From positions 1-40,313 of IMG/VR virus record IMGVR_UViG_3300021082_000063: a stretch of 40,313 nt of DNA; one strand, 5' to 3'. Positions 18,346 to 40,313 of this stretch are shown piece by piece (position 1 is the first letter of the stretch; each line of letters starts with the position of its first letter). Source of the DNA: a virus. Taxonomy: Duplodnaviria; Caudoviricetes. The notes beneath the pieces are model-generated. The model had not been told where the DNA came from and ran no database searches. It worked only from the letters and a program-made list of their open reading frames with translations. Both the position numbers and the translations under genes were made by a program.

Positions 18346-18544
18346 GGTTTTTTCTCGCCCGGTACAGCCGCTTGCGTTCCGCAACATAGGCCCGGTTATC
18401 GATCTGCCACTGCTTGTCGTAGTCGGGGTTCTTCTTCTGCCAACGCTTTCTGATCTTGCGCTTGAGCGCCCGGTATTTCTCTGGATATTTGGCGCGCCAC
18501 GCCAGTGCGGCCCGGCGCGCCTTCTGTGCTTTGGTCAGGATCAC
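18338..18544 (-). CDS. Small basic hypothetical protein
   Basis: K/R-rich 68 aa, coupled to both neighbours. Confidence 0.6.
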   Translation of the reverse strand: MILTKAQKARRAALAWRAKYPEKYRALKRKIRKRWQKKNPDYDKQWQIDNRAYVAERKRLYRARKNRG

Positions 18545-19095
18545 GCAACGAGGCGGCGGCGGCGCAGCCGCTGCAGCCCAAACAGTCCCATCACACCAGC
18601 GAGCAGCGCAGGCAGACCCGCGCCAGCCGCTGGACCGGGAACAGCGAACGTCGAGATGTTGCCGGAGTAACCGGAGGTGCCGCTGCCGGTGCCGGTGAAC
18701 TCGGCGTAAAAGATGCCGGTGCCGTTAATGATGCCGCTGCCGCCGACCCCTTGGCAATTCGACACAAGCGGGCAAGCCGTTGCCGCCTGTGGTCCGAACA
18801 ACAAGACGTCGTCGCCATTGTTGACGACTTGGTCAACGCCAGCGGAATAAATCGACGCCACCCAATTGACGATCTGGTCGGCAGGAGAGGCGAACGTGTT
18901 GGTCGCGTTTGCGATTGTCAGATACGAAGGTCCGGTCAGACCGAACGTCACCTGATCCTCGAATGGTCCCACGGCGGGGGCGAGCTGAAAGTTGCCCGTC
19001 GCTGACGTCGGGTTGGCTACAAGGTTGACTTGGACAGCCTGTGCGCCGCTGGCGAGCGCAAGCAGCATCGTAGATGCCAGCAACAGCTTCTTCAT
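18541..19095 (-). CDS. Secreted PEP-CTERM-like protein (VPGP variant, FxDxxxF-type)
   Basis: Signal peptide MKKLLLASTMLLALASGAQA; C-terminal VPGPAAGAGLP, transmembrane segment and RLRRRR. Confidence 0.85.
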   Translation of the reverse strand: MKKLLLASTMLLALASGAQAVQVNLVANPTSATGNFQLAPAVGPFEDQVTFGLTGPSYLTIANATNTFASPADQIVNWVASIYSAGVDQVVNNGDDVLLFGPQAATACPLVSNCQGVGGSGIINGTGIFYAEFTGTGSGTSGYSGNISTFAVPGPAAGAGLPALLAGVMGLFGLQRLRRRRLVA

Positions 19096-19111
19096 TGGAT
19101 CGTCCTCTGGT

Positions 19112-19546
19112 TTAGAGCGCACCTTGCTCTTGATTGACCTCGTCCATCAGCAGATCGGGATCGATGCCAAGATTAAGATGGATTTCATCGAGGCACCGGG
19201 CGACGAACGTCTTGAACGCCAGCTCGCCCATGCTGGCAAAGGAGATTGATTTCGGAAACAGCACCACCTCTCCGGTCAGCGCGGGCGACGGCTCACAGTG
19301 GCCGGTCGCCATCTTTAATGCAAACAGCAACTCCTCCTCGTTTTTCCAGCGCCCGTCTGTGTTGTCGATCACCTTTCGGAGCAATGCAAAAAACCATCGA
19401 TGGTGCTTGGGGTTACGGGGTTGCCGGATGCCGACCAGCACCTCCGCGCCCTCTGGAATGCCGTGGATGGTGTCGTCGGCATTGAAATCGGCGGGGACCA
19501 ATGCCCCGCCGACCCGCTTCATGCAGCAACCGTCAAGGTCGGACAT
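19112..19546 (-). CDS. DUF1367-family protein
   Basis: PRN.KHHR.FFALL...PKSISFASM...F motifs. Confidence 0.8.
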   Translation of the reverse strand: MSDLDGCCMKRVGGALVPADFNADDTIHGIPEGAEVLVGIRQPRNPKHHRWFFALLRKVIDNTDGRWKNEEELLFALKMATGHCEPSPALTGEVVLFPKSISFASMGELAFKTFVARCLDEIHLNLGIDPDLLMDEVNQEQGAL

Positions 19547-21270: not shown

Positions 21271-21354
21271 GGGTAATCCCCCGTTTATTGACTTGATGGG
21301 CGTCATATAATATGAAACCACCTGTCATAGCAAATGGAAATGTGGACATCTCAG
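21271..21354. promoter_or_regulatory. Divergent promoter region with variant operator TCATATAATATGA
   Basis: AT-rich gap between divergent operons; TTGACT at 21288-21293; palindrome at 21303-21315. Confidence 0.6.
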
Positions 21355-21579
21355 ATGATGCCTAACAAAAAGCTGAAGCGGCTCGACAGTGTCGAAGCCG
21401 TGTTCAACGCGCTGGGCGACACCCATGACGTCGCCGCCGTTGCGGAGGTGCCGTACCGCACCGCGCTGAATTGGAAGAACCTCTACGACCGGCTCCCGGC
21501 CAGAACGTACAAGCGCATACAGGAGCGGCTGGCGGAGAAGGGCTACGTCGGCGACGACGATCTGTGGGGCATGATCTGA
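21355..21579 (+). CDS. Cro/YdaS-like HTH regulator
   Basis: VFNALG.T..VA....VPYRTALNWK...RLPA pattern; first gene of the rightward operon. Confidence 0.7.
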   Translation: MMPNKKLKRLDSVEAVFNALGDTHDVAAVAEVPYRTALNWKNLYDRLPARTYKRIQERLAEKGYVGDDDLWGMI

Positions 21580-22049
21580 TGCCCGTGAAGATCAACATCA
21601 ATCCAGATTGGACACCGGAGCGCGTTCAGTATCTGCGCGACAACTACAGAACGATGTTGGCTGCAGACATTGCCAAGACGTTTGGCGTGTTCACGCGCAA
21701 CGCAGTGATCGGAAAGGCGCGGCGTCTCGGCCTGCAATCCGATCACCGCATGCGACCGGCGAGGCGCGGGCCGAAACGTGTCCTGACAACAACCAAAGCG
21801 AAGATCAGTCCGAGGGGGATCATTGTGAAGCGGGAGAAGGTAATGGACGAGATCAAGCTGAAGGTGCTGCGCGGCCCGATCACCTTCATCGACCTTGAGC
21901 CGTGGCACTGCCGCGAGATCGTGCGCGACAAGCCGGTGATGTACTGCGGTCATCACAAGATGCAGGGCAGCTCGTACTGCCTTGAACACCACAGCAAGAA
22001 CCATGTCCGAATGGCAAACAGCAGAGTGGAGAAATACTATGGCCTCTGA
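21579..22049 (+). CDS. gcrA: GcrA-family transcription regulator
   Basis: WTPERV..L...TRNAVIGKARRLGL, plus C-terminal DL...CR.....YCG.....SSYC..H. Confidence 0.9.
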   Translation: MPVKININPDWTPERVQYLRDNYRTMLAADIAKTFGVFTRNAVIGKARRLGLQSDHRMRPARRGPKRVLTTTKAKISPRGIIVKREKVMDEIKLKVLRGPITFIDLEPWHCREIVRDKPVMYCGHHKMQGSSYCLEHHSKNHVRMANSRVEKYYGL

Positions 22050-22908: not shown

Positions 22909-23081
22909 CCGATCAAAAAAAACTCAACGCTGTGCGCGATGTGTACAAATTCTTCAGACAGCAACAGCCATCGTCGCCTGCATGGTTTCAGGTGGTGGAT
23001 AGTTGCATTGACATACTGATGCAGAGCCACATTGCAGACTTAGAGAGCCGTGCGCCAATGGTTGGGCATGAGGACGATTGA
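22905..23081 (+). CDS. Hypothetical protein (58 aa)
   Basis: Fills the gap exactly, with ATGA and TGATG overlaps (MTDQKKLNAVRDVY...); lower GC. Confidence 0.55.
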   Translation: MTDQKKLNAVRDVYKFFRQQQPSSPAWFQVVDSCIDILMQSHIADLESRAPMVGHEDD

Positions 23082-24586
23082 TGATCACTGAGCTGCGCGA
23101 CTATCAGGTCGAGGCGATCGACGAGCTGCGTGATGCGGTTCGCGACGGGCACCAGCGCGTCGTGATGCAGGCCCCGACCGGCGCAGGCAAGACGCTGGTG
23201 GGAGCCGCGATCATCGACAGCGCAGTCCGCAAGGGCAAGCGGGTGTTGTTCGTGGTCCCGGCGTTGTCACTGATCGACCAGACGGTCGGCGTGTTGCAGG
23301 GCGAGGGCGTCGATGACGTCGGCGTGATGCAGGCGATGCACGAGATGACGGACGGACGTTGCAAGGTTCAGGTCGCGTCGGTGCAGACCTTGAGCAAGCG
23401 GCAGTTCCCCGAGGCCGACATCATCATCATCGACGAGGTGCATCGCTGGTTTAAGTTCTACGGCAAGATGGTTCTGGACCCGGCGCACAAGGGCAAGCCG
23501 ATCATTGGATTGTCGGCCACGCCTTGGACGCGCGGGCTGGGATCGTATTTTACGAAGCTGCTGCAGCCGGTGACGACGCAGCAGCTGATCGACGACGGCT
23601 GGCTGTCGGATTTCAAGGTGTATGCACCCAGCTCGCCCGATCTCACAAACGTCCGCACGGTGGCTGGCGACTACCACGAAGGCGATCTCGGCGTGGTGAT
23701 GAACGATGGCAAGCTGGTCGCCGACGTGGTGCAGACGTGGCTGGAGAAGGCGCAGGGGAGGCCGACGCTATGCTTTGCGGTGGACTGCGCCCATGCGCGG
23801 GCTTTGCAGGAGCAGTTCGTCAGGGCTGGGGTGGCTGCGGACTATCAGGACGCCTACACCAAATCGGAGGCGCGGCACCATATACGGCATCGTTTCCACA
23901 ATGGGGACATCAAGGTTGTCTGCAACGTCGGGACGCTGACCACTGGTGTGGATTGGGATGTCCGCTGCATCGTGGTGGCGCGACCGACCAAAAGCGAGAT
24001 GCTGCACGTTCAGATTATCGGGCGTGGTTTGAGGACGGCTGAAGGTAAGGATCACTGTCTGATCCTCGACCACAGCGACAACCATATCCGCTTGGGGTTC
24101 GTCACCGACATCAATCATCCAGAGCTGGACAGCGGGCGCGAGCCGCGAGCCAAGACCAAGACCGAGGACGCCATCGCGCTGCCGCGACCGTGCGTCGGCT
24201 GCAAGGCGCTGCTGCCGCCCAAGACCAAGGTGTGTCCGGCCTGCGGGTTTGAACACCAGCCGCGCAACGGTGCCATCGTCTGCGCCGACGGCGAGCTGCT
24301 GGAGATGGACCGGGTCACCAAGAAGCAGAAGCCATCGCTGGGTGTTCGCGAGCAGCTGGTTCTGATGGGGCGACAATCGATCTACTCACAGCTGCTGCAC
24401 ATTCAGGAAGAGAAGGGCTACAAGCCGGGCTGGGCGTCGATGCAGTTCCGTGACGTGTTCGGATCACCACCCGCCGGGATTGTCTGGGCAACGCAAACTC
24501 CGACACCACAGCTGCGGTCGTGGATCAAGTCGCGGCAGATCGCCTATTTCAAGGCCCGTGAAAAAACACTGGAGACGGCACGATGA
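23081..24586 (+). CDS. SF2 DEAD/DEAH-box helicase (RadD/YejH-like) with C-terminal zinc ribbon
   Basis: QAPTGAGKT, DEVH, GLSATP, QIIGRGLR and CxxC...CxxC. Confidence 0.92.
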   Translation: MITELRDYQVEAIDELRDAVRDGHQRVVMQAPTGAGKTLVGAAIIDSAVRKGKRVLFVVPALSLIDQTVGVLQGEGVDDVGVMQAMHEMTDGRCKVQVASVQTLSKRQFPEADIIIIDEVHRWFKFYGKMVLDPAHKGKPIIGLSATPWTRGLGSYFTKLLQPVTTQQLIDDGWLSDFKVYAPSSPDLTNVRTVAGDYHEGDLGVVMNDGKLVADVVQTWLEKAQGRPTLCFAVDCAHARALQEQFVRAGVAADYQDAYTKSEARHHIRHRFHNGDIKVVCNVGTLTTGVDWDVRCIVVARPTKSEMLHVQIIGRGLRTAEGKDHCLILDHSDNHIRLGFVTDINHPELDSGREPRAKTKTEDAIALPRPCVGCKALLPPKTKVCPACGFEHQPRNGAIVCADGELLEMDRVTKKQKPSLGVREQLVLMGRQSIYSQLLHIQEEKGYKPGWASMQFRDVFGSPPAGIVWATQTPTPQLRSWIKSRQIAYFKAREKTLETAR

Positions 24587-24861
24587 ACGCCGGGCGCAAG
24601 GCGTTCCTGCTGGCCGGGCTGCGAGCGGCAGTGCTGAAGGTGAAGCTGATGGAGAACGAGCTGCTTGCAATCGGCGTGTCGGTGAAGCACGGCGTGATCA
24701 ACGAGGAGGGGGCAATGCAATGGCTGCACAGCGAAGGACTGCTGCATCTGATGCCGGAGGCATTTCAGATCGACGACGGCTCAACCGATACGTCTGTGAC
24801 AAGTGCCTCTCCGAAGCCGTCACCATCGAACCCGGCGTCGGACGTGTCCCCTACGAGCTGA
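24583..24861 (+). CDS. Hypothetical protein
   Basis: GGAG RBS and ATGA coupling to the helicase. Confidence 0.65.
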   Translation: MNAGRKAFLLAGLRAAVLKVKLMENELLAIGVSVKHGVINEEGAMQWLHSEGLLHLMPEAFQIDDGSTDTSVTSASPKPSPSNPASDVSPTS

Positions 24862-26762: not shown

Positions 26763-27557
26763 ATGAACCGCTTCAAGAAAATCAACGACGTGTGGTGCAT
26801 CGAGATCGGCGGCGAGCCGACCGTCGGCACCCTTGTCGGCCAGACCGTCACGGTGACGCTGGCCTCCGGCGCAACCAAGCAAGTCACGCTGGGCGCGTAT
26901 CTCGGCAACGGCATCTACGCCAACGCGCCGCTCGCCTCCGCCCCCAAGGTGGAGATCGGCTCGCTCGACGGCATCATCGCGCTGTTCGACAAGGCCGCCG
27001 CCCGGCTCAAGTTCCCGGCGGTGGTGCTGGACGTGCCCGGCTACGAGGACGGCGTCCGCATCTCACGCGCTGGCGCTCGCGCCAAGTTCCCCGGCACCCT
27101 GAACGTCACCAACGGCGCGAAGGATGACAGCGAGTACGGGCGCACATGGTTCGGGCGCGTCGGCCTCGACGGCAAGTACGCGCCGAGCCGTGACGCCACC
27201 CCCGAGATCGCTGCGGCGCTCAAGGCGTTTGCTGCCGATCCGGTCAAGGTCGCCACCGCCTATGGCCGCGTCAAGCGCAGCCAGATCGAGGTGCGGAACG
27301 CCGACGGCACGGTCGGCTTCAAGCTGGTCGGCCAGTGCTGCTTCTGCCGCAAGGCGCTGACCGACGAGCGCAGCACCGACGTCGGCTACGGCAAAATCTG
27401 CGCCGGTCACTACGGCCTGCCGTGGGGAGCCACGGCGGTGGAGGCCGCCGACGACGGCGCGTTCCATCAGGAGCAGGCCTTCAGCGAAGAGCAGCGGCTG
27501 GAGGACGAGGCGGATCGCCGCCTCGATTGGGAAGCAATGGCGCAGCAGCACGGCTGA
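26763..27557 (+). CDS. DUF6011-domain protein
   Basis: C-terminal CCFCRKALTDERS...GYGKICA; AAGGA RBS. Confidence 0.85.
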   Translation: MNRFKKINDVWCIEIGGEPTVGTLVGQTVTVTLASGATKQVTLGAYLGNGIYANAPLASAPKVEIGSLDGIIALFDKAAARLKFPAVVLDVPGYEDGVRISRAGARAKFPGTLNVTNGAKDDSEYGRTWFGRVGLDGKYAPSRDATPEIAAALKAFAADPVKVATAYGRVKRSQIEVRNADGTVGFKLVGQCCFCRKALTDERSTDVGYGKICAGHYGLPWGATAVEAADDGAFHQEQAFSEEQRLEDEADRRLDWEAMAQQHG

Positions 27558-32045: not shown

Positions 32046-32510
32046 ATGGCTGGGGTGAAGCCATTGCTGGAGACGCTGGGCGCGTTGATGCCGCTGGCGA
32101 AGGTGCGACGCGGGCCGGGCGAGCTGATGGGCGTCTACGACAGGCACATTGACGACGTCCCTATCGATTGGCTGAAGCGGATGCCCGGCAACAACATCAG
32201 AAGCGAAGAGAACGTCAGGCTGCTGATGAAGCAGATCGAGGAGCAAGGCCTGCTCGATCCCGGCATCATCCATGCCGGGGGCCAGAGCAAGACGGCGATG
32301 CTGGGCGAGGGCAACCACCGGCTGGAGGCGCTGCGGCGCATGGGCTACCAATCGATGCCGATCCGGTCGTGGGTCGGCAGGGAATACGGCAGCGGCAAGC
32401 CGGGCAGTGATTTCAGCAGCGATTGGATTTTGCCGCCCGGCAAGACGGGTGACGCGCGACCGTCCGACATCTTCCGCAGCCTGTCCGATCTGCTGAAGGG
32501 GCAACGCTGA
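32046..32510 (+). CDS. ParB/Srx-N-like domain protein with shared N-terminal leader
   Basis: I.E.GL.DP.I...GEGNHRLEALRRMG...MP; begins MAGVKPLLETLGAL. Confidence 0.75.
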   Translation: MAGVKPLLETLGALMPLAKVRRGPGELMGVYDRHIDDVPIDWLKRMPGNNIRSEENVRLLMKQIEEQGLLDPGIIHAGGQSKTAMLGEGNHRLEALRRMGYQSMPIRSWVGREYGSGKPGSDFSSDWILPPGKTGDARPSDIFRSLSDLLKGQR

Positions 32511-33493
32511 TGGCTGGCGTCAAGCCTCTGCTCGAAACCATTGGGGCGCTGCTGCCGAAGGGCATCAAGGCGTGGCATGCCTCGCCGCACGATTTCGACA
32601 AGGTGGACCTGAGCAAGATCGGCACCGGGCAGGGGGCGCAGTCATACGGGCCGGGGTTCTACGCGGCGGAAAGTCCTGCGGTGTCAGGACGTGGCGGCGA
32701 GTATTGGCAGGAGTTCTCGCGGCATCCAAAGTTTCAAGAGGACGTCGCGCAGCGCGGTGCCATTGGTTTTTTGGAGGGGGAAGGCTTTGATCGCGCCAAG
32801 GCTATCGAGGCTTCTGCAAAAAACCTAGAGAGCAACGAGCGGTGGCTGGCGAGCCATCCGGTGTCCACCGAGGAACAAGAATATCTCGCAAAGCTGACAG
32901 CCGAGCGGCGAGCGGCGCACGATCTTCTGGTGAGCGACAAACAGGTCGGCCCCCGCGTCTACGAGCTGAACCTCAAGGCCGACCCGAGATCGTTCCTGCA
33001 GTGGGATGAGCCGCTGTCGCAGCAGAACCCTGCCGTTCGCGGCGTGGTGGATAAGTTTGAGCTGGGCCGAGACACCGGGCGCACCAGCATCGTCCACGAT
33101 GAAAGCACTGGCGAGAACATCTATCGGATACTCGGCCAGCGATTGGGGAATGATGGCGACAGGCTTGCGATGAAGCAGCTGTCGCGCGAGGGCATCCCCG
33201 GCGTCCGCTATCTCGATCAGCAATCACGCGCCTTTGGCAACCTCGACTTGGTGCGGAAAAACATTGCCGACACAGAAGCCTTGATCGCCGAGTTTCGCGC
33301 CAGCGGCAACAATCTCCGCGCTGCCGAGCTGGATCAAACCAGAGCGAGGCTGCAGCGCGGGTTGGACACGCCCCGCACCTACAACTACGTCGTCAACAAC
33401 CCTGACATCATCGAGATCATGCGGAAGCTGGCGATCCCCGGCATGGTCGGCGGCGGTGCATACACGGCGTATCAGCCGGGGCAGCAGCAATGA
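32510..33493 (+). CDS. ADP-ribosyltransferase-like protein (polyvalent-protein ART type) with shared leader
   Basis: WHASPHDFDK.DLSKIGTG.GAQ.YG.GFY.AE...VYE..L...GIPGVRYLD...NYVV; begins MAGVKPLLETIGAL. Confidence 0.75.
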   Translation: MAGVKPLLETIGALLPKGIKAWHASPHDFDKVDLSKIGTGQGAQSYGPGFYAAESPAVSGRGGEYWQEFSRHPKFQEDVAQRGAIGFLEGEGFDRAKAIEASAKNLESNERWLASHPVSTEEQEYLAKLTAERRAAHDLLVSDKQVGPRVYELNLKADPRSFLQWDEPLSQQNPAVRGVVDKFELGRDTGRTSIVHDESTGENIYRILGQRLGNDGDRLAMKQLSREGIPGVRYLDQQSRAFGNLDLVRKNIADTEALIAEFRASGNNLRAAELDQTRARLQRGLDTPRTYNYVVNNPDIIEIMRKLAIPGMVGGGAYTAYQPGQQQ

Positions 33494-34518
33494 GCAAGCT
33501 GAGCAAGCTGCTCGAAACCATTGCCGCGCTGCGCGACATCCGTCCGGCAGCTGAGAGCCTGCACGACGTTGCGAGATCGAATTTCAAGTACGGCATGGTC
33601 GGCAAAAACGAGATGGTGCCGATTGATAAGTTGACCGGCGGCGTGTCCACCGCAGCCGACGATGCGCGGCGCGTCGATGAACTGTTTCAGCAGATGTCGG
33701 GACCGCAGGGCTACGTCGAGCGGCTGATCGCCGACGACGCAGGCAACGTGGTCGAGGGGCAGCACCGGCTCGACGCGCTGCGCCGCCTGCAGGCGCGGGA
33801 GGTGCCGGTGTCGCGGCTGCACGACCTGTCGAGGCCATATGACGTGCAGCGGGTTGAGCGAGCGATTGCCGAAGGCGGCGTCAAGCATCCAGACCAGATC
33901 ACGCAGCTGGCTCGCGAGGCTTTCGAGAGCGCGTTCCGGCACGGCGGCCCCGCCAAGGTTCTGGCCGAGCGGGAGATGCCAGCGCCGTACACTGCGGCCT
34001 ACGAGGCCGCGCTGAAGCAGATGCTGCCGATCAACACCTTCCACGGCTCGACCGAGCGCAACCTGAAGCGCATCGATCCGCGCCACGCCATCGAAACACG
34101 CGGCGCGACATTCCATGCGACCAATCCTGACGTCGCGGAGACGTTCACGTTCCCGCGCGAGTACGGCGAGATGCTGACCTACGATCCGGCGACCGGGCGA
34201 GAGCTGAAGCGTGGCCGGGTCTACGAGACACAGCTGACGCCAAAGAAGCTGCATGAGGTGCCAGCCACCGACGCGCAGCGGTTCATCGACGACAGCGGCA
34301 TGCAGGCCGAGGTGGTGAAGGAGGCTCGCGGCACCGGCCACGACGCCATCGTCGCGCGTGACGTCAAGGAGGGGATCGGCGAGCGGTACAAGGGCGACGT
34401 CTACGGCACGTTCACCAGTGACATCGTCAAGATACTCCGCAAGTACGGCGTTGCAGCGCCGCTGGCTTACCCGCTGGCCGGGCCTGCGATTGATGCGGCG
34501 AGGGGCAGTGATGGCTGA
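33490..34518 (+). CDS. ParB-like plus ART-like two-domain protein with leader variant
   Basis: EGQHRLDALRRL...VPV, then FHGS...GATFHATNPDVA...GRVYETQL...GHDAIV; begins MSKLSKLLETIAAL. Confidence 0.7.
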   Translation: MSKLSKLLETIAALRDIRPAAESLHDVARSNFKYGMVGKNEMVPIDKLTGGVSTAADDARRVDELFQQMSGPQGYVERLIADDAGNVVEGQHRLDALRRLQAREVPVSRLHDLSRPYDVQRVERAIAEGGVKHPDQITQLAREAFESAFRHGGPAKVLAEREMPAPYTAAYEAALKQMLPINTFHGSTERNLKRIDPRHAIETRGATFHATNPDVAETFTFPREYGEMLTYDPATGRELKRGRVYETQLTPKKLHEVPATDAQRFIDDSGMQAEVVKEARGTGHDAIVARDVKEGIGERYKGDVYGTFTSDIVKILRKYGVAAPLAYPLAGPAIDAARGSDG

Positions 34519-36046
34519 CCGATACGAAACCGACGTGGCGTGGCCGCTGCCGCAGGAGCCGACCGCAGCCGAACGCGCTGCCTTCCTGCAATCCCGCAAG
34601 TACCGCAACGTCGGGCCGGGCAACAACAGGCTGGAGGATGTCGCCGACGCGCTGGTGCCGAAGGAGCCGTGGGAATATGGGCTGATGGCGCTGGGGCCGG
34701 GCGCAGGCCTCGCCGGTCGGGCGCTGGCGCAGCTGCCGAAGGCTGCGCGGGTGGCGCTGGGGGCTGCTGGGATCACGGCGACGGCGAGCGAGGCCGAGGC
34801 AGGCAACAAGTGGAGCAAGGCCGGTGGCGCGTCCGTCGATGCCGTCAAGTCATGGCTGCAGAAGCTGGGCTACAACCCCAGCGACGTTCCGGCCAATTGG
34901 GTGGTCCGTCACACGCCGCAGGGTCCGGTGCTGGCCGACGCTTCCGACAAAGGCGCTGGCGGCTATCACAATCTGTCCGCGCTGCGAACCGGCCTGCCGC
35001 TCGACGAGATGGGCTACAAGATCAAGGGCGCACCGGATTTCCAGCGCAACGTCAAGGACATCGCCGACTACGAGGGCGGCTACCTGATCCCGACCGGCGT
35101 GGATCGCATGCGAGCTGGCGGCAAGCTGACGCAGATCGGCGAGACGAAGCTGCCGAAGGCGGTGCAGATGGAGGGCGGCATCGACTATCCGTGGCTGCAG
35201 ATGGGCAAGAAGGTGCCGGGGCAGGCCGACGACGTGACGCGCATCTGGGCGAACCAGCAAGGCCCGGCAACCGGGATCAACCGCAAGGCGGAAGAGGTGC
35301 TGGAGAAGGGCGGGACGCCATACCTGATGCCGGTGACCGGCGCGAAGGGCATGGGCGACAGTTCGCAGCAGCTCACATCGTCGGCGCTGCAGGCGGCGCG
35401 GCAAGCCGACCTGACACCGGCTGCGATCAAAGCCATCGACGAGGCGCTGCCGGTCAAGGGCGCGAAGATCAAGGGCGATCCGGTGCGGCCCTATCCCGGC
35501 TTCGCCAGCGACGAGCTGCCGGATTGGCTGCGCGACGTCTCAGGACCGTGGCGCAGCGCGTTCGTGAAATCATTGGACATGAAGCCGGTGATGAAGGGCG
35601 GCGGGCCGGATATCGGTCAGGTGCGCTACGCCAACACCGATCCGCGATTGGTCAACACGCCGACCGCTGCGGGTGGCCGCATGATCGCGCAGATGGACCC
35701 GACGCTGGGGACAGCGCCGTCGCTGCATTCCACCTATCCGGCGGCGATGCTGGGACCGCAGGGCGGCGTCGGCGGCCTGCAGGGTTCGGTGCCGTTCCAC
35801 CTGATCAACCCCGACATCCACCGTGCGCTGCTGAAGGCCGGGCCTGCCGAGAAGTTCGCCAACAAGGCCGACTACTACTCGATGCTGCACATGCCGACCG
35901 GCGTTCCGAAATATCAGAAGGTGACGCCAGAGGTGGTCGATCTGGTTTCGGAGTTTTTCCGTAAATACCCGCAGGGTTGGGCAGTCGGTGGAGCTGTTCC
36001 GCTGGCCGGTCGCGCAGCCTACGAACAAAGTGTAGGATCACAGTAA
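34511..36046 (+). CDS. Large hypothetical (probable virion cargo/ejection-type) protein
   Basis: ATG at 34511 after AGGGG. Gly/Ala hydrophobic segment ending SEAEAG; C-terminal RKY plus a hydrophobic tail like the two preceding genes. Confidence 0.8.
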   Translation: MADRYETDVAWPLPQEPTAAERAAFLQSRKYRNVGPGNNRLEDVADALVPKEPWEYGLMALGPGAGLAGRALAQLPKAARVALGAAGITATASEAEAGNKWSKAGGASVDAVKSWLQKLGYNPSDVPANWVVRHTPQGPVLADASDKGAGGYHNLSALRTGLPLDEMGYKIKGAPDFQRNVKDIADYEGGYLIPTGVDRMRAGGKLTQIGETKLPKAVQMEGGIDYPWLQMGKKVPGQADDVTRIWANQQGPATGINRKAEEVLEKGGTPYLMPVTGAKGMGDSSQQLTSSALQAARQADLTPAAIKAIDEALPVKGAKIKGDPVRPYPGFASDELPDWLRDVSGPWRSAFVKSLDMKPVMKGGGPDIGQVRYANTDPRLVNTPTAAGGRMIAQMDPTLGTAPSLHSTYPAAMLGPQGGVGGLQGSVPFHLINPDIHRALLKAGPAEKFANKADYYSMLHMPTGVPKYQKVTPEVVDLVSEFFRKYPQGWAVGGAVPLAGRAAYEQSVGSQ

Positions 36047-36446: not shown

Positions 36447-37046
36447 ATGCGCCGTTTACTTTCCGCACTGGTTCTGCTGCTCGCCGGTTTGTCTCCGGCG
36501 ATGGCACAGCCGTTCCCGGCGACCGGAGTGCCGACCTACTACGGATCGGTTCTCGATTACTCGGTGCCAGCCAACGCCACCGACATCGCCTGTCTGGAGG
36601 GTGCTGCTGGCAAGGTGGTCAAACTCAACGGCGCGTTTATTTCCGGCACCGCGCTGACGGCGGCGTCGATCAACGTCACGACGATGCGGCGGATTTCGTT
36701 GAACGTCGGCGGCACCAGCAACGAGATCAACCCGACATCCGGCAACCCGACGCACGGCGCGGCGTTGGCGAAGCTGAAATTCTGGACTGTCAGCCCGGCC
36801 ACGCTTGGCAACACCGATGTGCCTCCGAAGGGCATCGTGTTCAGGCGGCTGCGCTGGGACATTGGCGCTGCGCTCAGCTCGCCGGACGCCAGCTTGGCGA
36901 TGATCGCATCGCAGGCGAACAATCCGTACACCTCGCAGCCTGAAATCCGCAGCGCCACCAACGCGATCTGCATTGGGTTTGGCGGCACCGGATCGCCAGC
37001 GGCGCTGATCAACATCAACGTGGTTTGGACGGAGACTGACAGCTAA
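36447..37046 (+). CDS. Secreted beta-rich hypothetical protein
   Basis: Signal peptide MRRLLSALVLLLAGLSPAMA; GAGGT RBS. Confidence 0.8.
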   Translation: MRRLLSALVLLLAGLSPAMAQPFPATGVPTYYGSVLDYSVPANATDIACLEGAAGKVVKLNGAFISGTALTAASINVTTMRRISLNVGGTSNEINPTSGNPTHGAALAKLKFWTVSPATLGNTDVPPKGIVFRRLRWDIGAALSSPDASLAMIASQANNPYTSQPEIRSATNAICIGFGGTGSPAALININVVWTETDS

Positions 37047-37057
37047 CGGAGGCGGCT

Positions 37058-37267
37058 ATGATCGGCTCACTGGTTTCTCTGGTCGTCTACCTATTGGTGG
37101 TCGGCCTGATCGTCTGGCTGCTGCTCTGGCTGATCGACTACATCCCGGTGCCGGAGCCGTTCGCTCGCGTCGCCAAGATCATCATCATGGTGGTGGCTGT
37201 GCTGATCGTCATCTTCGTGCTGCTCGGCCTGATCGGCGAGGCACCGTCACTCAGGCTACCGCGCTAG
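37058..37267 (+). CDS. Two-TM small membrane protein (Thivi_2564-like)
   Basis: Two hydrophobic helices joined by 'IDYIPVPEPF'; GGAGG RBS. Confidence 0.75.
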   Translation: MIGSLVSLVVYLLVVGLIVWLLLWLIDYIPVPEPFARVAKIIIMVVAVLIVIFVLLGLIGEAPSLRLPR

Positions 37268-37554
37268 CGTTTTCCTCTGAGGATTTCGGAGACGCGCCCA
37301 CCGTTGCGGAGGCCGACCTGTTCGGCGATCTGATGCATGGTCATCTCGGTTTCCGCGAGATCGATCACCGCCTCCCGCATGTCGGAGCTGATGAACTCCA
37401 TCTCCATTGGGGCGCGGCGAACCGGCGAGGCCCGCACCGTCAGTGCCTCCGCCTTGCGGCTGAGATCGTGCGCCTCGTCGATCAGCGCCATCGCCTCCAG
37501 CATCTTGCTGCGTGATCGCGCCATCAACACTCTTGCCCTCGCCATGTCACTCAT
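37264..37554 (-). CDS. Small HTH DNA-binding protein
   Basis: C-terminal MTMHQIAEQVGLRNGGRVSEILRGKR; AGGAGG RBS. Confidence 0.75.
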   Translation of the reverse strand: MSDMARARVLMARSRSKMLEAMALIDEAHDLSRKAEALTVRASPVRRAPMEMEFISSDMREAVIDLAETEMTMHQIAEQVGLRNGGRVSEILRGKR

Positions 37555-37637
37555 GTGTATCCTCCTGTTTGGCGCGTCGCGGCTGTCGGGACATTAACTA
37601 GACCTCGTATCCCCATGTACTTGTCGGTCGCGGCGCG

Positions 37638-37760
37638 CTACTGCCGTCGTCTGCAGCCACCTATAAAGCAGGCCAGCCAGCGCCAGCGGTACGGTCCGTG
37701 CCAGACGTGGGGTTCGTAGGACACCCACCAGCCCAGCTCGTTCTGCATCACCAGCCGCAT
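37638..37760 (-). CDS. 40-aa Trp-rich peptide (MRLVMQNELGWWVSY...)
   Basis: Its ATG overlaps the TGA of the upstream gene; below the ORF-track cutoff. Confidence 0.35.
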   Translation of the reverse strand: MRLVMQNELGWWVSYEPHVWHGPYRWRWLACFIGGCRRRQ

Positions 37761-37999
37761 CACTGGCTCTCCAGCCGCTGGATTTCCTTGCGGACGGCGA
37801 TCCACGCCTCGCGCAGCTCGTCGTTTCGCCAGCCGGTTTCGTTGGCATGCAAGCCGCCGTCGCGAAAATAGATCGCATCAGCGGCGATCTCAAGCACGGC
37901 GAGCCACGGCTCGCGATCCATCTGCCTTGGGATGATCTCGCGGATTTCAGCGTTGATGCGCTTCAGCTTCGCGCTTCTGATGCCGGTGCGTAGTATCAT
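37760..37999 (-). CDS. Hypothetical protein
   Basis: Coupled ORF in the leftward cluster. Confidence 0.65.
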   Translation of the reverse strand: MILRTGIRSAKLKRINAEIREIIPRQMDREPWLAVLEIAADAIYFRDGGLHANETGWRNDELREAWIAVRKEIQRLESQ

Positions 38000-38220
38000 G
38001 GCCGTTGTCCCCTAATGGCGCGGCGCACCTGTGCGATCATGTTCTTGTGAGCGGTGTTTAGGTTGTTTCGTCGCGAACGTCCTTTTGGCAGGACGCCTGC
38101 GAGCTGGTTGCCGACGTAGATTTTGTGGTGGCGCGTCCCATCTTCTATCCGCCACGGCAGGCCGCAGCCGTTTAGTAGTTCTTCTAGGTCGCCGGGCAGG
38201 AACCTCACGACGACACCCAC
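37996..38220 (-). CDS. Small protein, possibly HicA-like fold
   Basis: Helix, W.IEDG.RHHKI, strand, C-terminal helix (KN..AQVRR); 74 aa. Confidence 0.5.
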   Translation of the reverse strand: MGVVVRFLPGDLEELLNGCGLPWRIEDGTRHHKIYVGNQLAGVLPKGRSRRNNLNTAHKNMIAQVRRAIRGQRP

Positions 38221-38414
38221 TGGCAGTCGTCGAGCAGCACCTTGATGGTCTTGCCGGATTTATCCAGCTTGACGTGGGCGATCTGCGCTTCAGCGACGGT
38301 GGCGAGGCCGCGCTGTTTACCGGCTGGCCGCTTGGTCGTCTTGATCAAGACGCCGTAGCGGTCGCCCATCATCCACCTGTCGGTGTAGACGGGGATTTGA
38401 ACGCGGATCGTCAT
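38205..38414 (-). CDS. Hypothetical protein (69 aa)
   Basis: AAGGAGG RBS before ATG 38414; 'DRWMMGDRYG...VKLDKSGK'. Confidence 0.7.
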   Translation of the reverse strand: MTIRVQIPVYTDRWMMGDRYGVLIKTTKRPAGKQRGLATVAEAQIAHVKLDKSGKTIKVLLDDCQWVSS

Positions 38415-38650
38415 TGCTGCTCCTCCTTCTGCGGCGTCGGCCAAGTCACGCCAAGTTCCTTTTTCCACTCGAAACAGATGCAATCGCCGCCGTCGGTGAT
38501 GATGACGCGATCCACGAACCCAAGCACTGAGTGAGGACCGCAGGCGAGACGGTGCGATGCCTTGACGGCATCCAGCTCGCCGACGAAGCGCAGCTCCTCG
38601 TGCTGGCCGCCGTCGCGATCCCACCAGTAGACTGAAAATTCGTCGGTCAT
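38411..38650 (-). CDS. Hypothetical protein (79 aa)
   Basis: ATG at 38650; 'EFSVYWW...RVIITDGGDCICFEWK'. Confidence 0.75.
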   Translation of the reverse strand: MTDEFSVYWWDRDGGQHEELRFVGELDAVKASHRLACGPHSVLGFVDRVIITDGGDCICFEWKKELGVTWPTPQKEEQQ

Positions 38651-38712
38651 GTTTCCGCCCATGCAATCACCAAGAGGCACCACAAGATCAGGATGAAGCC
38701 GATCAATTCCAT
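38647..38712 (-). CDS. 21-aa hydrophobic peptide (MELIGFILILWCLLVIAWAET)
   Basis: Bridges its neighbours exactly with TGATG and ATGA overlaps; GGAG RBS. Confidence 0.5.
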   Translation of the reverse strand: MELIGFILILWCLLVIAWAET

Positions 38713-39092
38713 CACGTTCCACTCCGCGTGATGCCCGATCCAGCCAGCTCCATGAAGCCGGGCGGGATGGCTGCAGCCTCGACAGCGACCAGTGCGTCAA
38801 ACACCGCCTTGGTGCGCCGCTCGACTAGGTTGCGATCAGCGTTGGGGGATATTTCAGCGACGATGTTTTCTAGGATGTTGGTTTTTGTCTCCCAGCCATC
38901 ACCCCAATCCCCACTGTGGGAAACCGTTTCCTCAGTGAACACCTTGCCGACAAACTTGCCGGTGGATGTTGACACCCACTCAACCTGTTTGCGTCGGCCC
39001 ATGATGCCGGTAGACATTTTGTAGCCTCGGCTTTTTCTGCTGACGGTCGTGCTTACAACCTCAGTCACCGAGAATTTTAGCTGCGTATTCAT
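38712..39092 (-). CDS. Hypothetical protein
   Basis: GAGGG RBS before ATG 39092. Confidence 0.65.
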   Translation of the reverse strand: MNTQLKFSVTEVVSTTVSRKSRGYKMSTGIMGRRKQVEWVSTSTGKFVGKVFTEETVSHSGDWGDGWETKTNILENIVAEISPNADRNLVERRTKAVFDALVAVEAAAIPPGFMELAGSGITRSGT

Positions 39093-39102
39093 GGCCGTTC
39101 CC

Positions 39103-39285
39103 TCACAAATCCCATGCTTCGATATCGTTGATCCGCCAATCGATTGCCTCTTCAGCGACGTCGATCTTGCGGCAGGCGGCGCGGAATGCGCCGATGTCCC
39201 TAGTTGCGGTGAAATCATCGACGATATGAGCGGGGATACTCATCGCCTCGACCTCAACTCCGACTTGGTGCCAGTTCGTTTTCAT
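39103..39285 (-). CDS. Hypothetical protein (60 aa)
   Basis: GAGGG RBS, ATG at 39285; first gene after the promoter. Confidence 0.65.
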   Translation of the reverse strand: MKTNWHQVGVEVEAMSIPAHIVDDFTATRDIGAFRAACRKIDVAEEAIDWRINDIEAWDL

Positions 39286-39296
39286 ACCCTCTTCTC

Positions 39297-39332
39297 CCAT
39301 ATCGCATGGAAGCCGTCAACCATTAAATATGG
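39297..39332 (-). promoter_or_regulatory. Promoter flanked by two CCAT-N5-ATGG operators
   Basis: TTGACG on the minus strand at 39314-39319; operators at 39297-39309 and 39320-39332. Confidence 0.65.
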
Positions 39333-39607
39333 GGCCGCCGTTTCCCTCTCTCAACATACTCAGTCCCTTCTGGTTGACTGTTCTAAGAGGCTAGTCGGCG
39401 TGGTGGGCGAGGGTTCAAGAGGCCACACCCCCCTTACCCCCATTCAGGAAAATGTTCCTGACTGGAAGGTAGGGAGATGGGCCTGACGGTCGTCGCGGAG
39501 CCGCGATGGGACTGTCGGCCTGACCGGCGTTTTGCTGCCACGGCATCCGGTCGGGAGAACTAAATCCCCTACACCTGACGTGTAATCCGGTCGCTGGCGG
39601 CTGGGGA

Positions 39608-39636
39608 TTGATGCGGAGGCCTGCGGTTGCTATTTT
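39608..39636 (+). promoter_or_regulatory. Sigma70-like promoter for a short antisense RNA
   Basis: TTGATG-N17-TATTTT with an extended -10 TG at 39628-39629. Confidence 0.55.
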
Positions 39637-39642
39637 GGCCTC

Positions 39643-39712
39643 AACATCCTCGCCTTCCCGCCGGAGGGTCTGGATCAGAAGGGCGGCCTCTTTCGAACAG
39701 GGGCCGCCTTTC
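39643..39712 (+). ncRNA. Candidate ~70-nt counter-transcript
   Basis: Lies between the promoter and a terminator-like hairpin at 39679-39711 whose G-U pairs work only on the + strand. Confidence 0.4.
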
Positions 39713-39720
39713 GCACGTCA

Positions 39721-39750
39721 AAGCTATGTCAGCTCGATGACATCTGTCCA
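39721..39750 (-). promoter_or_regulatory. Promoter reading into the non-coding region
   Basis: TGGACA-N18-TAGCTT; overlapped by an ATGTCA-N6-TGACAT palindrome at 39726-39743. Confidence 0.45.
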
Positions 39751-39751
39751 G

Positions 39752-39799
39752 CCACAAGATGTAGTGGGTGTGGATGCACCGACCTACCAGATGTAGTAG
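39752..39799. promoter_or_regulatory. Tandem NrdR-box-like sites
   Basis: CCACAAGATGTAGTGG (39752-39767) and CTACCAGATGTAGTAG (39784-39799), 32 bp apart; compare the consensus acaCwAtATaTwGtgt. Confidence 0.6.
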
Positions 39800-39932
39800 G
39801 TCGGTCACCGAACATAGAAACCAAACGGAACCCGGTGCGTTCTGATTGTGGCTGGGCGGCTCTATCACCCCTTGGGCGGCTTCAGCTAAGTCGTGGCCGG
39901 GCGGCCTGCGCTGCTCCGGCCACGCACGAATA

Positions 39933-39960
39933 AACCCGCCGGGATCGCGCCCGGCGGGTT
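39933..39960. terminator. Intrinsic terminator after DUF932 (possibly bidirectional)
   Basis: AACCCGCCGGG-ATCGCG-CCCGGCGGGTT with T-rich flanks on both strands. Confidence 0.7.
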
Positions 39961-39990
39961 CTCTTTGGTATCGGAAACCTATCCGAAGGT

Positions 39991-40313
39991 TTAGGCGGCG
40001 ATCTTCACCCCCCGCAGCTCCGCCATCGCGTTCGTCAGCGTGAACAGCGCCTTGTTCAGGTTGACGTTGCTATCCACGCCCTTGATCTGGCGAGTGGTCG
40101 AACGGCGGATCACGCCGTTGTCGTTGGTGCGGCGACCCTGCAGGCCACCCTTGATCGCGTTTTCCTGAACGCGATTGAAGGTCGTCCAGAGATCGTTGGA
40201 ACGATCCTCCCAGCGGCGCGGCTGCAGCAGCTGCTCCGGCGCGATGGCAGACACCGGGGCCTCGCCCTCGATCTGCTCACCGAAGCGGATTTGGTGGGCA
40301 GCGTTGGCGAAGA
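39991..40313 (-). CDS. DUF932-family protein, C-terminal part
   Basis: LLQPRR.ED...DLWTTFNRVQEN.IKGG...TR.IKG.D..V.LNKALF; in frame with 655..1 through the overlap. Confidence 0.85.
   Translation of the reverse strand, partial: FANAAHQIRFGEQIEGEAPVSAIAPEQLLQPRRWEDRSNDLWTTFNRVQENAIKGGLQGRRTNDNGVIRRSTTRQIKGVDSNVNLNKALFTLTNAMAELRGVKIAA
40212..40313 (+). repeat. Right copy of imperfect 102-bp terminal direct repeat
   Basis: 94 of 102 bases identical to 1-102. Confidence 0.95.

Follow-up and report, generated by a model that had tools for sequence, protein, structure and literature searches.

How a phage starts the replication of its DNA when no primase, initiator or polymerase can be recognized among its genes is the question raised by the genome considered here. 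The window (the whole stretch of DNA analysed, 40,313 nt) is a complete 40.3-kb phage record with a completeness rating of 100%. The contig ends (1–102 and 40212–40313) overlap by 102 nt and are 92% identical, representing two alleles inside the DUF932 gene; this overlap indicates an assembly join in a genome that is probably circular or permuted. Matches were found for the capsid, portal, terminase, head-closure and fibre genes; tail-tube and tape-measure proteins had no match among the window ORFs scanned. No cultured phage matched the window at the DNA level, and the nearest cultured-phage capsid proteins are only 31–37% identical to its own. A homologue of the GcrA cell-cycle regulator at 21471–22049 (E = 4e-18), also present in G152, G154 and G157, makes an alphaproteobacterial host probable.

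The first-pass annotation had listed an SF2 helicase and a RecT-like protein as the only DNA-metabolism functions of this genome. Both are present, but the list was too short, as a RecE-like exonuclease, a NinB-like protein and an HNH protein were matched as well. The reported lack of a primase, an initiator and an integrase held up. Toprim domains and tyrosine integrases gave no match in either of the two complete genomes that carry the element described below (the window and G152), and primase, DnaB, initiator, polymerase, ParA and S24-repressor gave none among the ORFs scanned in the two (sets of 66, 44 and 30 from the window; 28 of G152, from rough gene calls). A search for an initiator among the hypothetical ORFs produced no initiator-like match for the candidates tested; one of the many small ORFs without a family match could be an initiator. 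The genes that matter for what follows are these:

23078 to 24586, plus strand: SF2 (RadD-like) helicase, followed by a primase in its nearest outside relatives
24583 to 24861, plus strand: 92-aa ORF of no known family, occupying the primase position
39991 to 40313, minus strand: 3' part of the DUF932 gene, which continues across the contig join at 1–655 and serves as the synteny anchor

Helicases 49% identical to that of the window are directly followed by a Zn-ribbon/DUF7146/Toprim primase, and the primase overlaps the helicase match in 2 of 15 cultured phages among the matches listed. The 92-aa ORF stands in place of the primase both in the window and in L296–L299, and the window contained no primase remnant (best tblastn E = 0.15). 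Atlas searches returned DUF6011 for 26763–27557 and leads under 0.9 for the 92-aa ORF.

The element is absent from all four near-complete capsid relatives examined (49–55% identity), three of which have integrases. Their replication genes include a primase-helicase (G158), a DUF1376 protein (G154), a DnaB-like helicase with a beta clamp (G157) and a replication initiator (G155). The element is also missing from two partial records, G174 and G168, and from the corresponding site in L085 (70% capsid identity), a contig too short to show replication genes. With two genomes against four, and one clade against outgroups, this contrast in gene content amounts to a single evolutionary event.

The element itself is located in the interval from DUF932 to a group of small ORFs on the minus strand, in about 600 bp previously noted to contain no convincing ORF and proposed to be a ColE1-like, RNA-primed origin with an antisense RNA. 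The element is real, conserved and uncatalogued. That it is an RNA-primed, antisense-controlled origin of replication of this phage family is our preferred prediction of its function, favoured by a slight balance of probability. Its core consists of two facing promoters and the two overlapping RNAs that they are predicted to produce:

39721 to 39750, minus strand: predicted long-RNA promoter (-35 TGGACA at 39750–39745, 18-nt spacer, -10 TAGCTT at 39726–39721)
39333 to 39714, minus strand: predicted long RNA, a candidate pre-primer; the operator of the next promoter lies 382 nt from its start
39608 to 39636, plus strand: predicted antisense-RNA promoter (TTGATG at 39608–39613, 17-nt spacer, extended -10 TGC-TATTTT at 39628–39636)
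39643 to 39716, plus strand: predicted antisense RNA of about 72–77 nt, whose sequence complements the long RNA at its 5' end
39646 to 39675, plus strand: antisense hairpin 1, with a mostly sequence-conserved stem and a variable loop
39679 to 39711, plus strand: antisense hairpin 2, terminator-like with a short T-run, showing covariation and called as a terminator in L165

Relatives were collected by capsid and DUF932 searches and are uncultured phages from soil and sediment. Seven distinct sequences cover the region: the window (L163), L164, L165, L166, L167, L168 and L169. BLAST found mere scraps of similarity among them, and the pairwise identity in the antisense region is mostly 0.53–0.73, with one pair at 0.91. 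Despite this divergence, the layout of the element behind DUF932 is constant in all seven. Both promoters are kept throughout, the distance between the two -10 boxes is always 82–87 bp and the spacer of the long-RNA promoter is 18 nt in every case. A generic sigma-70 scan of the window called neither promoter, and hairpin 39679–39711 was not called as a terminator. Thus, the consensus alone gives the promoters no support; their conservation does. When a promoter matrix was trained on five relatives, leaving out the window and its near-twin L167, the window site ranked first in the 40-kb genome, with 34.8 bits compared to 14.0 for the next site. Every motif that the first-pass annotation had named, including both promoters, hairpin 39679–39711 and the G-tract at 39441–39428, is present where it had been placed.

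The predicted antisense RNA, about 70 nt long, ending at a plus-strand-specific hairpin and covering the 5' end of the long RNA as previously proposed, is likewise a constant part of this layout: it measures 70–80 nt and has two hairpins in 7/7 elements, with a folding z-score of -4.9 in the window and -4.0 to -6.3 across the seven, and the antisense strand always folds more stably than the sense strand. Alignment of the relatives, which had been suggested as a check, revealed compensatory changes on both sides of the stem in 7 of the 13 pairs of hairpin 2, with 98.9% of cells paired. None of 500 shuffles reached this score or this fraction of cells paired, and slid controls dropped to 36–57% paired. 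Hairpin 1 had no compensatory double change in the seven-sequence alignment. Since the structure guided the alignment, the sequences share ancestry and any terminator would covary, these results indicate that the structured strand is real; its function is not thereby demonstrated. The hairpin loops differ among the seven elements, which would fit incompatibility specificity. A second terminator-like hairpin with a T-run was observed on the antisense strand upstream of the antisense promoter (39513–39529, plus strand, in the window; 717–703 in L165).

The long RNA is less uniform. The distance from its start to the next operator is 365–382 nt in five of the seven elements; it is 540 in L167, in which an ORF is inserted, and an HNH gene is inserted in L164. 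No ORF is common to the seven long RNAs, and the ORFs differ even between the window and L169. A 164-nt contig from an RNA library (RNA run X10) matches 39416–39579 with no mismatches, but is a hint only, as there was no silent-stretch control and DNA carry-over is possible. Two further RNA-library records contained short partial pieces matching the searched span (36500–40313). In its 3' part, the long RNA is mosaic and falls into at least three types, with identities of approximately 0.5–0.6 between types and of 0.75 and 0.89 within two pairs, and in the window this part holds the G-rich features on which the comparison with ColE1 had been based:

39421 to 39483, minus strand: long hairpin whose 3' arm is the G-tract; between the window and L169, the pyrimidine arm varies between C and U and the G arm is unchanged
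39428 to 39441, minus strand: split G-tract, G5-TAA-G6, the highest-scoring G4Hunter 25-mer in the genome, with the same tract only in L169
39346 to 39370, minus strand: remnant of the start of an HNH gene (ribosome-binding site and first codons); L164 has this gene intact

In ColE1, a conserved, unpaired stretch of Gs acts as a hook, with its exposure governed by the antisense RNA. In the window, the split G-tract is in place within a hairpin-rich tract as originally described, and its G4Hunter score is 1.92, a small margin over the next best site in the genome (1.88). However, it is found in only two of the seven elements (the window and L169), and an exact search for the G-tract region in viral contigs gave no matches. 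The other elements have a four-run G-tract (L165 and L168), a G/A tract (L167) or weaker tracts (L164 and L166), and five of the seven reach a G4Hunter score of at least 1.5 at +268 to +296. Furthermore, equilibrium folding predicts that the G arm is about 90% paired (0.87–0.93), and this value was unchanged when the first 78 nt were blocked. Such a 5' block altered the pairing of 0–135 downstream positions, with no pattern common to the elements. A G-tract that occurs in two of seven elements and is predicted to be paired regardless of the 5' block leaves the ColE1-like hook unsupported as drawn. An excess of G over C at +241 to +370 is significant in only two of the seven elements, and not in the window (309 of 1000 shuffles). 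In five elements, all but the window and L169, the long-RNA strand gives the better fold of the 3' domain.

Two features upstream of the long-RNA promoter had been missed by the first-pass annotation. One is a pair of NrdR-type boxes; the other is a nearly invariant module, described further below. The boxes are as follows:

39754 to 39765, no strand assigned: proximal NrdR-type box, a 12-bp palindrome 3 bp from the -35 of the long-RNA promoter
39786 to 39797, no strand assigned: distal NrdR-type box, a 12-bp palindrome 32 bp from the proximal one (30–32 bp in relatives)

The pair is clear in five of the seven elements and degenerate in L164; in L166 it is replaced by the phage's own palindrome, CCAT-N5-ATGG. 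The proximal box is 3 bp from the -35 in six. As far as the cited parts of PMC2892513 and PMC9110341 describe them, the NrdR operators of reductase promoters share with these boxes a palindromic pair 30–32 bp apart (tandem boxes at 31–32 bp in PMC2892513), a conserved C and G nine bases from each other and a location beside the RNA polymerase site; in contrast to those operators, the phage boxes precede a non-coding RNA and no reductase gene. Among 151 alphaproteobacterial genomes, the paired motif was found in three, each time directly before the gene for the ribonucleotide reductase large subunit (3/3), and the reversed control gave 0. A relaxed scan for pairs across 280 loci (3.4 Mb) found only three others. 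Neither the window nor G152, both complete genomes, contains an NrdR-like Zn-ribbon, which makes host NrdR the likely binder. According to the portion of PMC9110341 cited here, the NrdR tetramer that carries dATP/ATP binds its boxes and represses. To judge from the sequence, host NrdR would likely repress the predicted primer promoter when dATP levels are high, and a replication role for the element agrees with the link of NrdR to DNA synthesis (PMC9110341, same portion). High dNTP levels delay S phase in Caulobacter, as stated in the cited part of PMC12186491.

The element is delimited by a promoter on one side and a terminator-like hairpin on the other, with the invariant module next to the latter:

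39297 to 39332, minus strand: early-operon promoter flanked by two CCAT-N5-ATGG palindromes, with its -35 at 39319–39314; left border of the element
39851 to 39927, no strand assigned: nearly invariant module behind the long-RNA promoter, with a GC-rich hairpin and two 9-bp direct repeats 20 bp apart
39933 to 39960, no strand assigned: terminator-like hairpin after DUF932; right border of the element

The module includes a nearly invariant stretch of 47 nt and a covarying hairpin, and is more conserved than the RNA. Its core is present in six of the seven elements and in no other of 339 loci; it could be a protein-bound origin or a primosome site. CCAT-N5-ATGG occurs at five sites in the window genome (0.61 expected), at 710, 25586, 26700, 39297 and 39320, in AT-rich gaps before early genes. 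Shorter CAT-N5-ATG forms lie at 21304, 21326 and 21347, about 22 bp apart, at the start of an 81-aa ORF (21334–21579) whose product is likely to bind the CCAT-N5-ATGG sites. By resemblance, this protein may be Cro-like; a single-sequence structure model (pLDDT 63) had no fold match. HNH endonuclease-like genes are found on both sides of the element in L164 (851–1384 and 1820–2314) and on one side in L166/L003 (L003:6500–6991), and may drive its mosaic structure.

A model (R1) was built from the seven elements, so that its matches to these seven follow from how it was made. The search with R1 covered 59 of the 80 capsid loci and 28 of the 75 DUF932 loci from viruses, as well as all 80 metagenome DUF932 loci and seven records in full. 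Pattern scans for more distant members returned, besides the known elements, only hits that R1 rejected, including 47 in bacterial genomes. R1 matched none of the 151 alphaproteobacterial genomes, a set with no positive control. Rfam gave nothing at the gathering score in the window, only four chance-level hits (E = 1.4–9.8), and the plasmid collection had no match beyond pieces of 29–41 nt.

These searches do not bear out a ColE1-like identity as such: there is no similarity to Rfam families or plasmid sequences, and the G-tract occurs in two of seven elements. What the element shares with ColE1/pMB1 is the arrangement, namely facing promoters (predicted here), an antisense RNA over the 5' end and no initiator protein (as outlined in the cited part of PMC3167613), together with a G-rich stretch approximately 270–290 nt into the long RNA. 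ColE1 RNA I is about 110 nt long with three stem-loops (PMC3035462, in part), compared to 70–80 nt and two stem-loops in all seven elements here. The G-tract of the phage element is predicted to be paired and is not conserved, with no antisense-dependent refolding predicted at the G arm, and there is no sequence or structure match to RNA I or RNA II (Rfam, E up to 1).

The MRB (marine RNA-based) origins of Vibrionaceae plasmids, type pB1067, are closer in layout. The cited sections of PMC3035462 describe a proven origin of about 500 bp without an ORF, a 68-nt RNA I with two stem-loops, the second of which is the terminator, and a longer RNA II overlapping it at the 5' end. The phage element has the same general features, and just as one MRB member keeps only the antisense core (PMC3035462, same sections), the 3' parts differ here. 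In contrast to MRB, the phage element belongs to a probable alphaproteobacterial phage rather than a Vibrio plasmid, has a clear promoter with NrdR-type boxes, and probably makes a shorter long RNA, about 380 nt against 465 or more (PMC3035462, same sections). No MRB match, and so no homologue of the 110-bp RNA I core, was found in the plasmid collection, which does not include the pB1067 record. In layout, the element is closer to the Vibrio MRB plasmids than to ColE1, but it departs from both systems in the sequence and structure tests.

Among phages, parABS mycobacteriophages such as Alma and LadyBird also lack repA, and according to the cited part of PMC7157519 their origin is a non-coding transcribed region of 400–500 bp, comparable to the candidate here. 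Their origin, however, serves a plasmid prophage and not lytic growth, whereas the present phage has no match to ParA, integrase or CI-type proteins, and no antisense partner is described in that part of the source. The R-loop origins oriF and oriG of T4, acting with UvsW, provide a lytic example in which early, transcript-primed replication gives way to recombination-dependent replication, and an SF2 helicase is common to both phages. T4 encodes its own replisome, however, with no antisense control described in the cited part of PMC3016281, and the helicase of the window matches RadD-type models and is at most a putative UvsW orthologue.

The case for an RNA-primed, antisense-controlled origin is carried by the layout shared by all seven elements, the covarying antisense fold, the lack of a conserved ORF, the NrdR-type boxes, the likeness in anatomy to MRB and the gene content. 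Two expectations that came with the original proposal, a G-tract of the ColE1 or mitochondrial CSB2 kind and a switch in GC skew, were not borne out. No skew switch occurs at the element; the skew at four-fold sites instead tracks gene class, with early genes at -0.19 on both strands. Middle genes are G-richer on the plus strand (0.16 vs. -0.03), which is, if anything, opposite to what a leftward one-way fork would give. The suggestion that the phage may persist as a plasmid also found no backing: neither ParA nor a CI/S24 repressor was matched in the window, where ParB-like domains occur only in ORFs of the virion region, and dif-like sites were found at the chance level (three against 3.3 expected).

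If the element is an origin, host RNA polymerase would make a structured RNA of 350–400 nt that primes DNA synthesis, and the 70–80-nt antisense RNA would inhibit it, presumably by loop–loop pairing as in ColE1 and MRB. By the same analogies, the G- or purine-rich 3' part would form an RNA–DNA hybrid, for which the G arm would have to leave its hairpin; host Pol I would then extend the primer, and a PriA-type mechanism would load the host replisome. By analogy with ColE1 (PMC3167613, in part), RNA polymerase, RNase H, Pol I and PriA would all come from the host, which would explain the genes missing from the phage. The RecE/RecT-like proteins and the helicase might take over later, as in the T4 scheme of PMC3016281 (cited part). 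High dATP would lead NrdR to close the primer promoter, which would open once DNA synthesis depletes the pool, so that initiation would be tied to falling dATP, either during host S phase or as positive feedback from the phage's own DNA synthesis. Rising phage copy number might also titrate NrdR and derepress the host reductase. The replacement of the boxes in L166 by the early-promoter palindrome suggests early lytic use rather than a prophage role. A stronger version of this scheme, which we put forward tentatively and consider doubtful, is that the lineage has lost its primase and starts all replication from a new family of RNA-primed origins, switched by NrdR, with the antisense RNA setting specificity and rate and with no means of integration or partition. 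It would give Alphaproteobacteria their first RNA-based replicon.

The repression of a primer when dATP is high follows no obvious logic and speaks against the origin. So do two observations that keep alive a different explanation, in which the long RNA is an antisense-controlled leader or attenuator of the early operon (37264–39300) or of an inserted gene, and the small RNA causes early termination. In the window, no minus-strand terminator was called between the long RNA and the early operon into which it points, and an ORF follows the long RNA in two of the seven elements (in L164 the HNH gene, of which the window keeps the start, and in L167 a 64-aa ORF that has a ribosome-binding site). 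Early termination caused by a small RNA has models in the sar RNA of P22 and in the immunity of P4 and N15, which is RNA-based; variable loops would also suit immunity specificity, and no protein repressor of the CI/S24 type was found. Nevertheless, the early operon has its own operator-flanked promoter, which is also present in L085, a contig without the element. The downstream genes differ among the relatives, and five of the seven have no sizeable ORF before the early promoter. The 300 nt of structured RNA past the antisense target exceeds what an attenuator needs, and the missing primase and initiator are left unexplained. We regard control of downstream genes, the main rival to the origin, as unlikely, albeit with a real chance of being correct.

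It is more improbable still that the element is a stand-alone non-coding RNA with an antisense regulator and NrdR decoys, and that the phage uses its RecE/RecT-like proteins and SF2 helicase to replicate by recombination, or else starts from a protein-bound origin, for example the module at 39851–39927 with an unrecognized initiator. The recombination genes are indeed present, and both the mosaic 3' part of the long RNA and the greater conservation of the module, with its two direct repeats, would be accommodated. However, recombination-dependent replication requires a first round from an origin, at least in T4 as covered by the cited part of PMC3016281, the candidates tested gave no initiator-like match, and a proximal box at a fixed 3 bp from the -35 in six elements is operator-like rather than a decoy. 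A type I toxin–antitoxin pair of the hok/sok kind, with a small toxic peptide encoded by the long RNA and silenced by the antisense RNA, is very improbable: a folded RNA whose G-rich tracts sit in stems and whose 5' end is covered by an antisense RNA would suit it, but the seven elements have no ORF in common, no listed short ORF resembles a shared hydrophobic peptide, and the ORFs of the window and L169 differ in spite of their identical G-tract.

If the RNA-primed origin is correct, it would answer how a 40-kb phage replicates without a primase, initiator or polymerase. ColE1 and MRB are the only replicons named as RNA-started without an initiator in the cited part of PMC3035462 (from 2010), and PMC7157519, in the part cited, adds mycobacterial prophages; the present element would represent a further, unrelated family of RNA origins, in a phage that shows no sign of existing as a plasmid, probably in an alphaproteobacterial host. 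Control of the primer promoter by NrdR would link nucleotide supply directly to initiation. In the open-access literature (subscription journals being outside the scope), we found neither NrdR control of a primer promoter nor an RNA-based, antisense-controlled origin in an alphaproteobacterial or non-partitioning phage. A protein-free origin of 670 bp, with seven natural variants that have different loops, would also provide a set of possibly compatible vectors. Even if a rival explanation holds, the locus has a conserved pair of sense and antisense RNAs, so far uncatalogued, under NrdR-type boxes.

Several other features of these genomes were observed in passing. In the early region of the window, 18541–19122 (minus strand) encodes a secreted-looking protein with a weak match to a PEP-CTERM family (E = 3e-4). 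G152 has an anti-defence gene of the Acb2/Tad1 family near the scaffold gene (L318:1517–1744), with no counterpart among the window ORFs scanned. In G157, one of the capsid relatives that lack the element, a protein of 88 aa with an NrdR-type Zn-ribbon is encoded beside GcrA (L325:2032–2298) and is possibly a phage mimic of the NrdR DNA-binding domain. Finally, the region after the portal gene in the window (32046–36046) contains ORFs with similar N-termini, two of which carry ParB-like domains, and their number and order differ in G152. Two ORFs of this region have motifs that we take to be reminiscent of the ADP-ribosyltransferase domains of injected polyvalent proteins.
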